DNA from: Macrostomum hystrix
Lineage: Eukaryota; Animalia; Platyhelminthes
Length of the DNA stretch: 64,000 bases
NCBI GenBank assembly: GCA_950097015.1
Contig: CATNEN010000001.1
Coordinates: forward strand, 12,710,001 to 12,774,000
Direction of reading: 5' to 3'
Shown: piece after piece, positions 21,344-40,762 of the stretch
How positions within the stretch are numbered: position 1 is the stretch's first letter
Layout of the letters: each line of letters starts with the position of its first letter
Translations under genes and position numbers: made by a program
The notes under the pieces: generated by a model
The model's input: only the letters and a program-made list of their open reading frames with translations
Told to the model about the DNA's origin: nothing
Database searches by the model: none

Positions 21344-22933
21344 CTGGAATGATGGGGAATTCAGTCAGCTGATTGACTGTGCACCTGCACAGACTGGCGT
21401 ATCAAGCTCGATCATCAGCTGAAGCGCAGAGCAGAATCGCTAAAAGAATCAGCAACTTACGCAACCAAGCGGGTTAAGCGTCCGGCCGTCTCCTTAGCCC
21501 TCGATTCCCTGAAAATTTCAGAGACAGAGGCAAAAAATTCTCATCCGCGACCAGAATTAAAGCAATGACCCGAAAATGGAGGAAAACGTAAATGAAAGAA
21601 CTTAGTTAGAATTCTCACTTAGAATTCTTTCGTTGTCATTTTCAACTCAAAAAATAATGTATAACGCTGTGTAACGCTGTAAGGAATAAAGTACTCATAC
21701 TCGTATTAGTTAAAGTGAAATGGTTGGGAGTTTTTGAAACCAGTGACCTGCCCTCATGAAGGATGGGAGTGTGGGAACGGGCGATAGAGTCGATGGTCTA
21801 TTCGCCTAGCTGCTCGCGAGATGTCGCTGAGAGAAGGGGGAGGATGAGGAGGTTCAAAGGCCGCAAAGAGTGGTCCTATCGGCCTCAGGCTGGCCAGTCC
21901 CACTCGTCCCATAGGCCACAGGCATGACTGCCGTGCCTACCCCAAGCAATGCTCGAATCCGGCAAAAGGTCTAAGGGGGCTTCGGATTGTCCGGAATCGG
22001 ACAAGACAGGGCTCAGCAGCCTACTGTCGTCAGTAGTGCGATACGCAGCTGACTCCTAGCTTCGGTAGCGGTGGTCGAATCGGCCTAGGCTCTTGTCACA
22101 GAACTGCGGAAAGGCTATCGGCAAAGCAGAAAGATGATCTAGGGTAGCGCAACCACCCAATGCGCCTACGTTGCCACCGCAGGCATTTGGGAACTTGGGT
22201 CCCCGGAGTACACAGCTCCTAGTTTATCACGCAGATCTAGACAAGCCGAAAAATGAGCAAACTGCAACTTCCGTTTTAGACTGGGGTGAGAGCCCCAGAA
22301 TGGATCGAGACACGCCTCAAAAGGGGATTCCTGAATTCGCGCTACAGGGGTCTAGAAAGGTGGTACTAAGAACTTGAATGAGAATCCGTAGCCAGAATCC
22401 TACTCATAGCACATCAGACACATTTTATACATTAGACTGTAGCCTACGCATTCAGTAACTAACAAATCTGAATCCGTGTGAGTTGAGGAGATCAGAGGCT
22501 GGAGAGATTATGCAGAACAACTGGCTGAATGATTACGCAAGCAGAGAGTAAGTTGATCACCCCTCTCGCTCGCCGCAGTTGCGAGAGGAGGGGAAAAGAA
22601 GGGGAATTCCATTGACAGGGGAGGTTGACACGCACATTTGAGTCTGCCAGAGAGTAAGGAAAACCGGCCAAGGAATCCCGCACCCTTAGAGGAAATGTAC
22701 ACGCTACACTCCGCATTTTACTCGCAAATCCCTAGCTCCTTGTTTCTCTCATGCGCGCTTACAGTTGCCTTCCTGCCGCAGCCTTCTAGCTCGGCCTCGC
22801 CAGAGCCCACCCCCTAATAAATTAGCCACTCATGTCTGAGGGCTGCCGAAGAGAGAAAATAATTAGGAAAACGACAAAGGAGAGATTTAAATTGTACTAA
22901 AATAATAGGCCCAATAAATTAGTAAAGGCTGTA

Positions 22934-23311
22934 AGTAGTAGGGGTTATGTGCACTCTGCCGCAGGATTTTCCGCGGAAAAGCCACGGGCCCAGTGAGTAA
23001 ACATAGGCGCCCATGTAAATGCATTGGTGGATTCTGCCGCAGGGAAAGCCGTGGCAGTTCCGGGGAGGCCCAGGTGGATTTGCTAAAAATAGAAACAAGG
23101 GAAGTGTACATTACTGACCCACTTTACAAAGCATGCCACAAGTATATTCACTGTTCGCTGTATATTCACGTTCCGCACAATAATTTTAATGCATAGAGAC
23201 CTGAAATTTCATATCGTGCGTTTCTATGGCTGGAGTAACCTTGGGGTTAGTGAGTGAACATAGGAGCCTATGTAAATGCATTGATGTGCTCTGCCGCAGG
23301 GAAAGCCGTGG
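22934..23311 (+). repeat. Polinton left terminal inverted repeat
   Basis: Reverse complement of about 39184-39571. Confidence 0.95.
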
Positions 23312-23424
23312 GAGTTCCGGGGTGGGGTGGGGAGGTCCGGGGCTGATTTGTAAAAAATGTGGGTTAGTGGGAACTCGCGGACCATGTTTTACTATAGCTG
23401 TATGTTTGCGGCAATGGTTTAGTC

Positions 23425-23432
23425 TATATAAG
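23425..23432 (+). promoter_or_regulatory. Candidate TATA box (TATATAAG) for the first Polinton gene
   Basis: About 80 nt upstream of ATG 23507, just inside the TIR; motif only. Confidence 0.4.
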
Positions 23433-23506
23433 TACCAAAAATTGATTGATTCACGTGGAGCCGAAATTTTGTTTAAACGAGATAATTAATTCTGTTTAAG
23501 TTTGTC

Positions 23507-37342: not shown

Positions 37343-38296
37343 TTAAGAGTTGCTCAGGCGAATTCGGAAAGTCCCCCCCAAGCCAATCCAATATTCACCG
37401 TTAACACTGCTAGGCAGAACCAGCTGGATGCAGATGGGTGCTGGCTGCTGCAGTGCTTCATTAGCGGTCGCGGCCGCAGGCTGAACCTCAGTCGGTGGTG
37501 GTGGTGTTGGTGGTGGTGGTGGTGGCACAGGACCCGACTCAAGGTCGCGGATCATGTCAGACAGACTGACTTCTGCTAGCATCCTGGCACGCTCCATATT
37601 TTTCCCGGAAACAGGGATTGCATGTTGCTGCTGCAGCTGCTGCTGTTCGATTACTTCGTGCTCATCAAGGTTCTCGAAAAATGCGGTGTCCAGCTCAGGC
37701 AGCTCGAAGTTAGGAGTGTCAGCGTCAAGCAGGGGAGCTCCGACATCGCCGTCAAGTAGAGCAGCAGCAGCAGCAGAAGCAGCAACAGCAGCATCAGCAT
37801 CAGCAGCTGCAGCGGCTGCTGAAAGAACGCCAGGGGTCGAAGAATCTGCTGTTGCAGTAGCGGTGCCGGGCAGAGAGGGAGTGCCGATGTCTATAGCAGC
37901 AGCATCAGCAGCAGCAGCAGTAGGCTGGGCATTGAGCCGAGCGCCAGTGCTGGTGACTCGACCGCATAAATTAGCTATTACTTGACTCAATGAGCTCTCC
38001 GGCTCTGCCGCCTTTTTGCCTTCCTCTTAATGCGCCACTTCCAGAGCAGTAATGCGCGCCCGCTCGCGATCCTCAGCAGAGCTCCAGTTAACAGTAGCAT
38101 GATTTTTATGCCGCTTTATTTGGCCTCTAACAGTAAAGAGCTCAACCGACTGACATTGGTGACATAGTAGCCATCGGGTGACATTGCAGCCTTGTTTCAC
38201 AACATGATGCTTAAGTCCACCGAGCATACTAGTGTTGCAGGTGGCACACACTTCATGAACGTAGGATGGGCACCGGGGACGACTCATAGCTTTCAT
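37343..38296 (-). pseudogene. Zn-finger-like plus Ala/acidic/Gln/Pro-rich protein split by one in-frame TAA (38027-38029)
   Basis: ORFs 38027-38296 and 37343-37990 are in the same frame, separated by a stop and 12 open codons; CATC...HH...CHQC...H..H. Confidence 0.6.
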
Positions 38297-39183
38297 CGAC
38301 TTAACATTTATTCAAAGTGACTCTTGTGAAAATTTCAAATTTTCAAGTCCAGTTTAATCTCTTTATATCGATTCCCATCCCCTTATCTTGCAGAACACAT
38401 AGCGGCTATGTTTACAGCTTTGTTTTTTTTCACATTTTGTTTGGAATGTGTACACTGTTATGCCATACAGAGGGTCAGAAAATTATTAATATTACCAGGT
38501 AGCCAGTCACACATCGCACAAACTGCTTTGTTCATGCAGTGAATTGGCCCAGCAACCGATTGTTACTGAGTTTTGTGGGCGAAATTAGCTGATAAGAAAC
38601 TGATAACTGTTCCCGCGGTGTTTTGGTACAAACAAAAACAACCTCGCGAATATTGATCCGCATGGAATGGGACTATTGCAAATCAAGTGCGCCGGCACTT
38701 TTACCACAAAACCACATATTTATCTTACTGTGGCATTCAAGATATTGTTCTCTATAGCTCTCTACGCTCGTATATGGTGTTTCGATAATCTATTAAATGT
38801 TTGATTTTAATTTGTCAGGCCTTTGCAGACAGAAACCCAAAAGCCGACACTGATTAACTTCTAGTTAACAATGAACTTATCAATTGTTTCCTGCACAGCT
38901 CCTTAATGAAAGATTTCAGTGGTAAATTAATTAGATTTTTACTTCTCTCTATGCACGCATTCCTCATCAGAAAGCAGCTTTCCGAAAGCATAGGTCCATG
39001 TATTCCCATTGCCATAGTTTAAATACCCAGACATCGGAAGCAGATTCACTACCTTGTAAATCCAACCCGCCTATATTATTGCTGCAGTGTTGTGTCTTGT
39101 AAAACTGGGACGGGCTAGAATTTGAACAAATTGGTTGCTTTTTTATAAAAAGCCATATTTTCTTTCTGACCTCCATGGGATTT

Positions 39184-39571
39184 CCATGGCTTTCCCTGCG
39201 GCAGAGCACATCAATGCATTTACATAGGCTCCTATGTTCACTCACTAACCCCAAGGTTACTCCAGCCATAGAAACGCACGATATGAAATTTCAGGTCTCT
39301 ATGCATTAAAATTATTGTGCGGAACGTGAATATACGTGAATATACAGCGAACAGTGAATATACTTGTGGCATGCTTTGTAAAGTGGGTCAGTAATGTACA
39401 CTTCCCTTGTTTCTATTTTTAGCAAATCCACCTGGGCCTCCCCGGAACTGCCACGGCTTTCCCTGCGGCAGAATCCACCAATGCATTTACATGGGCGCCT
39501 ATGTTTACTCACTGGGCCCGTGGCTTTTCCGCGGAAAATCCTGCGGCAGAGTGCACAAAACCCCTACTACT
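39184..39571 (-). repeat. Polinton right terminal inverted repeat
   Basis: Matches left TIR; differences noticed are a 10-bp duplication (cgtgaatata) and a substitution near the terminus. Confidence 0.95.
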
Positions 39572-40762
39572 GCTGTAATTTAACGTTTATTAGGCTGATC
39601 AATCCCTAGGCCCGTGCCCGTTATTCCGCCGCCTAGCTGAAAGAATGTCCCTTAGGAATAACAATTAAAAGCCGCTGCGCGGGGTACTTATCAGAAATGC
39701 CGGTCGCGCTGCTGCAGGCCGTCGTTCTCGCGGGAGGGATTCGGGCAAAAAATGAGGAGAGGAGATGGGAGTTTAGCTGCAACTTGGCAAAGGGGCCAAG
39801 ACGCGGTGTGAGCGCGAAGCTCAATTTAGAGGCTCACCTAAAGAGGTGGCTTGCACCCTTGAGGCAATGTACAATTACGGAGGCAATCTACTAAGGAGGC
39901 AATGGGCCTGCGACTGCTGGTTTGAGCTTAAAGCTCGAGGGTCGGAGCCCTAAGCTAGAGGGAATTGACTCCGGATGAGCGCGAGCTCAGCTTCGGGTGT
40001 CCGAAGGCTGCCCGCAGACTCAGAGTAGGAGCGGGGTCGCTCGCGGAGGTTCCGGGAGGAGAGTAGCTTCCAAAAGGGGAGAGATTGTGGAGCTTCTAAA
40101 GTGGGGGCAGCGCATTATTCCTTAAATAGGCGCCGCCAACCTCACATTCATCAAAATAACCCACATTCTCGCCGGCCTGTCAACGAGGAATCGAGTCGGC
40201 ATTACGCCACCCCGATTGCCCACTGAACCGGCGGCGAGAAACGCCAGATGCCCCACTAGGAGCTTCTGCCGACAGTCTGCCAAATGATTGCGATTCCGCC
40301 AGGACAATGGGAAGCGCAGGCGCCGACCTGCCTACGGTGACATTACATGTATCTAAAGGGGGAAAGGTCATATAATTCAGCTCGGCTCGGATTACAATGA
40401 AGAAGTGAGGACATGAAGAATTATTGCTCACTCGTGACGCATGAGTGATTCCAGATATCTGATCGCGGTTTGGTGGGGAATTATGACCTAAAATAGTTCA
40501 TACAGTAAGCTATGGGCCGCGATCAGTCATTCCTACAGCAGGGGACAAGACAGATCCAGGGAGAGGGGATCGATGGCTACTTAATTCACCACCGCCCCAG
40601 GCCCGGCCCTAAGATTAATGATCTTGTTTTGTGGCCAGCTGCTGGTTGGGTCGCGATGATTGATTGCCTAAAATTTCGAAAAAATTGGCTGGCTCACACC
40701 CACCACTCGATTCTCGAAGTACACTCCACATCAAAAGTACTATTACTGTATAAAGGACTCAC

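Follow-up and report, generated by a model that had tools for sequence, protein, structure and literature searches.

A Polinton nested in an LTR-like element between the exons of an ankyrin and Mab-21-type gene of Macrostomum hystrix

The nested insertion and the exons around it

The window considered here is a whole stretch of 64,000 nucleotides from the flatworm Macrostomum hystrix (assembly GCA_950097015.1, contig CATNEN010000001.1, positions 12,710,001 to 12,774,000 of the forward strand). It is a tandem array of four minisatellite-rich units of 11-12 kb, A to D, each of which carries on the minus strand one gene that combines an ankyrin exon with a Mab-21-type enzyme. In copy B, two elements lie one inside the other in the first intron (Table 1): a Polinton/Maverick sits within an outer element that is likely to be a solo long terminal repeat (LTR), to judge from its TG...CA ends and 4-bp duplication.

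The limits of both elements are well-defined. In an alignment to copy A, the insert of copy B starts with TG (21716), ends with CA (40733) and has AAAG on both sides; copy A carries a single empty site, reading ATAG where copy B has AAAG, a difference of one base. With the Polinton excluded, the outer element is 2,374 bp long. The Polinton itself has ends of the form (AGT)2...(ACT)2 and is flanked by GCTGTA. For fixed ends, chance would give the 6-bp repeat with a probability of 2.4e-4, the 4-bp repeat with 3.9e-3 and TG...CA with 3.9e-3. Both duplications are intact, as a first, sequence-only reading of this DNA had described, and its identification of the inner element as a Polinton is borne out by the duplication, the ends, the integrase and a DNA polymerase B of the protein-primed type (pPolB). 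Because the inverted repeats differ by just two mismatches and one 10-bp indel, the insertion is judged to be young. Self-comparison places the Polinton only once in the window. The inverted repeats (22949-23325) contain a 94-nt internal repeat and a 17-mer repeated three times.

Independent sequencing data bear on the order of events. Seven of 15 listed runs were examined, all as assembled contigs, and the results hold among the contigs and joints listed. Four of them (X2, X3, X6 and X7) are called RNA-like here only because their contigs skip GT-AG introns, no run being on record as RNA; X8, labelled 'DNA?' and assigned to organism B, likewise departs from the window's sequence at the edge of an exon. 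The junction 21715/21716 is bridged by X1 record 2 (580 nt, 4 differences), X2 record 10 (260 nt, 0 differences) and X3 record 19 (218 nt, 0 differences), and because these contigs come from two studies (P1 and P2), the left junction of the outer element is genuine and shared. X1 may have a source related to that of the window, its four differences arguing against the same haplotype. At the centre of the outer element, the joint 22927>39572 in X3 record 21 contains GCTGTA once and is flanked by 198 and 118 letters, and contigs of X6, X7 and X8 reach 22934 and then continue into sequence that resembles the outer element's right part; a centre that lacks the Polinton is thus found in four of the seven runs. 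These contigs fix the order of insertion, the Polinton having entered the TG...CA element, as had been proposed from the sequence. Polinton ends with unaligned flanks occur in X1 record 6, X8 record 31, X2 record 14 and X6 record 15, which shows the family to occupy further sites. Among the listed contigs, the junction 22933/22934 with the flank found in the window is bridged by none, a lack of cover that proves nothing, and the same holds for the sparse cover of X2 and X3 over the region from the Polinton integrase to the polymerase.

The outer element is part of a repeat family with subfamilies. In X1 its ends have a summed contig depth of 12,000-20,000, compared with 250-660 over the Polinton, figures that are not copy numbers; because this depth is high, the outer element is taken to be a common repeat and hence a large target. 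Its first 150 bp (21716-21868) have low depth, other family members diverging before 21868, and X1 contains versions whose centre has internal deletions (22290-39819). On the strand of the host gene it carries TATTTAA at 40128 and AATAAA at 39591, 537 bp apart, which weakly suggests that it is oriented as the host gene is. Self-comparison of the element gave no second LTR and no internal self match, and it contains no gag-pol remnant and no open reading frame (ORF) of at least 100 aa with a family match. A tRNA scan found no tRNA genes.

The interval between the ankyrin exon and the exon with the nucleotidyltransferase motif had been read as a single intron, of 363 bp in copy A and 19.4 kb in copy B. 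This needs correction: the interval is made up of intron 1, a 48-nt micro-exon and an intron 2 of 113 or 117 bp (copies A and B). A micro-exon is present in all four copies, with 48 nt in A and B and a predicted 54 nt in C and D, and when it is included, the reading frames of A, B and C are free of stops and encode 1153, 1315 and 1147 residues. The claim that the exons and splice sites of copy B remain open stands, with four open exons, GT-AG sites and no internal stop. The joint 21342>21460, which has GT-AG ends, is found in contigs of X3, X6 and X7 (three of the seven runs, all from study P2). Among the listed joints there is none from the ankyrin donor (40763) to the copy B micro-exon, again a lack of cover that proves nothing. 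A joint 21343>40774, seen in X2 and X3 with unlisted letters between its sides, is taken to come from a paralogue that has a different micro-exon, and a joint 21189>40831 (side 29), which also occurs in the DNA run X1, was set aside. At 21344 the RNA-like runs show still other variants of the micro-exon joined on. Between the A/B and C/D types there are strong differences in the linker micro-exon and its introns, with exon 4 being 94.5-96% identical, and the ankyrin exon varies in length (487, 649 and 483 codons).

Table 1. Features of the window, in window coordinates
Feature	Position	Strand	Remarks
Copy B exon 1	40763..42711	-	start codon ATG at 42711; ankyrin repeats; phase 2 at its end; Pfam Ank_2 E=2e-84
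Copy B intron 1	21509..40762	-	19,254 bp (copy A 202 bp, copy C 107 bp)
Copy B micro-exon	21461..21508	-	48 nt, in frame
Copy B exon 3	20967..21343	-	nucleotidyltransferase motif MTGS-x20-DIDW
Copy B exon 4	18980..20553	-	carries the third acidic residue, the helical part at the Mab-21 C terminus and the stop; PF20266 E=2e-7
Paralogue copy A	6738..10941	-	1153 aa; empty site in intron 1
Paralogue copy C	49005..53092	-	1147 aa
Paralogue copy D	60355..64000	-	cut by window end; 99.9% identical to C
Micro-exons (B; A; C; D)	21461-21508; 9229-9276; 51481-51534; 62831-62884	-	in frame
Left AAAG duplication	21712-21715	+	from alignment to copy A
Right AAAG duplication	40734-40737	+	25 host bases from ankyrin exon donor
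Outer element, donor-side part	39572..40733	-	first letters on + are the right GCTGTA copy
Outer element, acceptor-side part	21716..22933	-	last letters on + are the left GCTGTA copy
GCTGTA duplication copies	22928-22933 and 39572-39577	+	flank the Polinton
Polinton/Maverick	22934..39571	.	16,638 bp, 6-bp duplication GCTGTA
Left terminal inverted repeat	22934..23311	+	378 bp, starts AGTAGT
Right terminal inverted repeat	39184..39571	-	388 bp
PC4-domain ORF	23507..24274	+	255 aa; PF02229 E=3e-6
rve integrase with chromodomain	24387..25484	+	365 aa; PF00665 E=2.6e-15, PF00385 E=1e-4
Putative minor capsid ORF	25527..26333	+	268 aa; by position only, order as in PMC8097293; no family match
Basic ORF, putative PW by position	26330..26653	+	107 aa; assigned from position; no family match
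Major capsid protein (likely)	26718..28007	+	429 aa; by sequence relatives
Adenain-type protease-like ORF (weak)	28013..28474	+	153 aa; E=1 to PDB 'Protease' 4piq; follows capsid gene
P-loop packaging-type ATPase	28524..29213	+	229 aa; Walker A GPTNAGKT; P-loop matches weak
Two ORFs, function not assigned	29253..30264	+	107 and 234 aa; second matched by M. lignano model P0040
ORF overlapping TBP-like gene in other frame	30308..31174	+	overlap also in M. lignano model P0043
Divergent TATA-binding-protein-like gene	30843..31409	+	188 aa, two TBP repeats
Protein-primed DNA polymerase B (pPolB)	32192..35701	-	1169 aa from ATG; PF03175 E=5.6e-17, PF02945 E=2e-6

The host protein and the genes of the Polinton

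The catalytic motif MTGS-x20-DIDW, present in copies A, B and C, fits the pattern h[QT]GS x8-20 [DE]h[DE]h given for cGLRs in bioRxiv 10.1101/2023.02.22.529553. The third acidic residue, for which the pattern has h[DE]h at 50-90 residues, is a D at a spacing of 61 (A and B) or 54 (C) that is flanked by polar Q and T; in the homologue P0006 of Macrostomum lignano this third residue heads a predicted strand. P0006, 73% identical to exon 4, served as a stand-in for structure modelling (predicted local distance difference test score, pLDDT, 76.6), and the best Foldseek matches of the model were MAB21L1, cGAS and MB21D2, with E of about 1e-5 and a target template modelling (TM) score of 0.4-0.54. 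Of the last exon's 27 relatives, 26 bear the name M. lignano, and by such relatives the host would be M. lignano or a species close to it. By its motif, PF20266 and the predicted fold of P0006, the host protein is cGLR-like, which upholds the earlier description of the gene to that extent; cyclic dinucleotide synthesis, a function as a 'sensor' and an 'immune' role stay putative. A literature search for Macrostomum together with Mab-21 turned up only an unrelated-looking paper.

Eleven ORFs of the Polinton lie antisense to the host gene. A search of NCBIfam with 11 Polinton ORFs added nothing. The likely major capsid protein has 27% identity, along its length, to an 'F54H12.2-like' protein and matches Atlas clusters at 0.98, one of which has a DJR-like domain in 24% of its members; a double jelly-roll (DJR) fold is the candidate reading from these sequence relatives. 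Its nearest relatives are 76-80% identical. The ORF that overlaps the TATA-binding-protein (TBP)-like gene has what we take to be a DnaQ-like look. In the Atlas it matches unnamed arthropod-rich clusters (0.96) and has a Maelstrom lead (0.86). A frame break as the cause of the overlap was rejected, P0043 having the same arrangement. In the pPolB frame, all seven motifs looked for are present. It stops about 20 residues short of a C-terminal motif-like stretch that sits in another frame and is presumably the C-terminal motif of the family. The description of the element as full-length thus holds for its ends and its set of genes and fails for the pPolB frame: if all core frames of an intact Polinton are to be complete, this one ends early, which would reflect either beginning decay or an assembly error. 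Scans of viral and metagenome data with the TBP-like alignment, pPolB and the capsid protein found no relative, their single match (locus L001) being rejected as a bacterial-looking false match.

Several features of the Polinton sequence may be added. A 15-bp tandem array of 27 copies (35941-36350) lies directly upstream of pPolB. Over 23436-28455, other Polinton copies in X1 differ by small indels within several ORFs, so the ORF ends in the present copy may reflect decay or assembly error. Contigs of X2 and X3 cover the PC4 ORF and the accessory region (23475-24323 and 36200-38200), and those of their joins that are also found in the DNA run X1 point to rearranged or deleted members of the Polinton family.

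The TBP-like gene is the most notable part of this cargo. PF00352 matches it in two stretches (E=2.9e-21), it aligns to 35 TBP sequences of the PDB (best E=1e-16), and a W, a Y and two F residues align with the four F of the archaeal protein 1mp9_A. In TBP, these four aromatic positions have a role in kinking DNA. Close relatives, 66-92% identical, are confined to M. lignano models and three Logan proteins; past these there is one JGI protein at 45% and then a steep drop. In a search of 1.84 billion proteins, the five matches below 1e-30 were one query Logan row, three M. lignano models and the JGI protein, and where relatives of a Polinton gene are named, in two cases, the name is M. lignano. 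Because the M. lignano models P0040 and P0043 join the TBP-like gene to the capsid, ATPase and neighbouring Polinton ORFs in the same order, the gene is assigned to the family of Polintons as such and not to the present insertion. A tree built by a quick method (68 of 71 rows passed a length filter, the rows coming from 67 of 150 listed matches) sets it apart from 16 rows with canonical TBP motifs, on branches too long for a donor to be named. The fold model, in which the saddle of a TBP would be expected, is weak (pLDDT 60.5 from 6 sequences), its best match in a viral library being a putative TBP (E=3.7e-4, root-mean-square deviation 16). The TBP-like gene would most likely serve the element's own transcription.

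Probable origin of the insertion and possible effect on copy B

The sequence-only reading had suggested that the Polinton might uncouple the ankyrin part from the nucleotidyltransferase, through capture by a pPolB acceptor at 35841 or through premature polyadenylation. The first of these is lost on phase. The ankyrin exon has phase 2 at its end, the site phase 1 in the frame of pPolB; the fusion was rejected on this ground, and the join would stop after 13 codons. The acceptor also fails a pyrimidine filter that 40 other sites in the intron pass. As for polyadenylation, a signal is present, but going from the donor in the host's sense, the AATAAA met first is the one at 39591, in the outer element. 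As it precedes the Polinton, early polyadenylation would more likely be due to the outer element.

We consider it probable that the locus records chance insertions, one stacked on the other, whose effect on copy B is passive or a mild lowering. The first insertion, likely of a solo LTR, would have been into intron 1 of one copy of the ankyrin-Mab21/cGLR-like array, the outer piece being what recombination of a retrotransposon might leave behind. The Polinton, which likely came last, would then have entered this LTR by chance, not long ago and only in some lineages, its integrase presumably making the 6-bp duplication; the insertion is probably strain-restricted. Chance insertion had been put forward earlier as an equal alternative, and the other sites of the family and the Polinton-free outer elements now make it the better supported one. 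Three observations weigh against this account. The centres without the Polinton may come from related copies of the repeat at other places and not from alleles of the present site, so that they do not prove strain restriction. The outer element was matched to no full-length retrotransposon. Finally, in X6 and X7 a micro-exon of the copy B type is joined to upstream sequence that is neither the ankyrin exon nor part of the window, and this type of locus may therefore not be transcriptionally passive.

This last observation lies at the heart of an alternative in which the outer, LTR-like part has rewired a gene of the copy B type. A new non-coding first exon would be spliced to the micro-exon to give a nucleotidyltransferase without ankyrin repeats, the ankyrin exon would end at the poly(A) signal of the LTR, and the Polinton would be a later passenger or disturber. 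A 115-nt contig of X6 and 181 loose letters of X7 agree in joining the micro-exon to exon 3 and, upstream, to one and the same foreign sequence, and their micro-exon carries a variant at 21489 that a DNA contig of X1 links to the LTR junction. The foreign piece has a stop in the enzyme frame five codons before the join. The first ATG downstream of the join, with none earlier in the micro-exon or exon 3, opens a frame of 615 aa that includes the whole catalytic motif and no ankyrin repeats. An ankyrin-less transcript may thus exist; TATTTAA and AATAAA lie on the host strand of the outer element, and some M. lignano models (P0006 and P0020) have no ankyrin repeats. Against this, the foreign exon is unmatched in the insert (no match in the window at up to 3 mismatches, the best having 11 of 30 positions mismatched), nothing ties it to the LTR, and it may come from another B-like paralogue or an assembly chimaera. 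Both runs belong to one study, and the contigs give no strand, start or level. Rewiring by the LTR is accordingly possible and, on balance, unlikely. The uncoupling of ankyrin and nucleotidyltransferase is kept alive by this joint, but not as an effect of the Polinton, since both runs hold the outer element in its Polinton-free form. A wider picture, in which the Polinton family keeps its divergent TBP as a working gene that runs its promoters and an LTR-bearing, cGLR-like copy is split into an ankyrin-only product and an ankyrin-less, possibly unrestrained, cyclic-dinucleotide synthase, with the Polinton arriving later in the new control region, seems to us doubtful.

It is a good deal less probable that the Polinton was kept at this site or targeted to it, either as a trap in which host RNA antisense to the integrase, capsid and ATPase genes would feed small-RNA silencing, or as an attack that blunts a sensor. 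The antisense arrangement of the 11 ORFs and the cGLR-type motif of a protein whose homologue is predicted to fold like cGAS and MAB21L1 would suit such a scheme, as would the defence locus eri-6/7 discussed below, which was struck several times by Polintons, but a single insertion in one of four copies, with close paralogues intact and Polinton-free versions of the outer element common, speaks against it. Least probable is a misplacement of the Polinton by assembly of a repeat-rich tandem array: near-identical units (C and D, 99.9%) and Polinton-free outer elements in other runs would permit it, but a misjoin is not expected to yield a perfect 6-bp duplication of a hexamer that is single in the Polinton-free contig, and the Polinton is unique in the window.

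Comparison with known systems

Intact vertebrate Mavericks, as described in PMC8097293, have a 6-bp duplication, (AGT)2//(ACT)2 ends, a mean length of 16.9 kb and a mean repeat of 402 bp. The present element, at 16.6 kb and with inverted repeats near 380 bp, resembles these and the adintoviruses (PMC8502044) in its duplication, ends and size. Its integrase and pPolB genes are likewise shared with them, as would be its likely capsid gene and its candidate ATPase and protease-like genes. It differs in that its candidate ATPase gene lies on the integrase strand, its pPolB frame ends early and there are extra ORFs of PC4, TBP-like and putatively DnaQ-like type; the flatworm host is a further difference. 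A literature search for Macrostomum with Polinton or Maverick gave only unrelated-looking papers.

TBP homologues are known from midsize double-stranded DNA viruses of eukaryotes, to go by the figure legends of PMC8502044 and 10.1101/697771, and the presence of such a gene in a Polinton-like element is a likeness to these. Those legends belong to a section on non-animal datasets, whereas the present gene belongs to an integrated animal Polinton family with several copies. For Polinton or Maverick together with TBP, our literature search found only figure legends of adintovirus papers, in a non-animal section; the maps and supplements of the same papers may show animal cases. The TBP-like gene is conserved about as well as the capsid gene, which bears on the question of how Polintons, having no RNA polymerase themselves, come to be transcribed.

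The nested insertion as such is ordinary, and a stronger precedent has been published for the eri-6/7 locus of Caenorhabditis elegans (bioRxiv 10.1101/2024.01.15.575659), where Polintons entered a gene of small-RNA defence several times and large remnants in an intron are accompanied by more RNA from upstream exons and less from downstream exons. Both loci have a Polinton between exons of a gene linked, in the present case putatively, to defence and transposons stacked at one place, and eri-6/7 varies between strains. That locus has repeated insertions, an inversion, effects that were measured and trans-splicing by way of repeat remnants; here there is one nested insertion with intact paralogues, and an effect of the Polinton on the host gene is hypothetical. 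The eri-6/7 locus is the closest case, and the present site is a simpler instance of it. What the site offers is a young, near-complete Polinton with apparent empty forms in a flatworm amenable to transgenesis, and hence a handle for measuring the effect of such an insert on its host gene.

The TBP-like cargo and the ankyrin-cGLR family matter more than the nested insertion itself. The ankyrin-fused cGLRs described in bioRxiv 10.1101/2023.02.22.529553 resemble the present proteins in that a nucleotidyltransferase of Mab-21 type with h[QT]GS-x-[DE]h[DE]h is preceded by ankyrin repeats at the N terminus; relative to that description, the present proteins extend a further 250-300 residues past the core and their third acidic residue has polar neighbours. 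The same paper reports most platyhelminths to be without a cGLR besides Mab21-like proteins, and Macrostomum nevertheless has a large ankyrin-cGLR-like family.

The outer element can be set beside the solo LTRs of M. lignano as treated in PMC12801592, which mentions solo-LTR inserts near genes. TG...CA ends, a short duplication, the lack of a coding frame and the status of a common repeat are alike. It differs in having no canonical heat-shock element (no match to the pattern of that paper on either strand of the outer element) and no assigned family; its terminal 12-mers gave no match in five supplements of the paper, so that no retrotransposon family could be assigned from these.

Copies C and D (43025-64000) are 99.9% identical over 4.6 kb, and this pair has arisen either by tandem duplication in very recent time or by duplication in the assembly.

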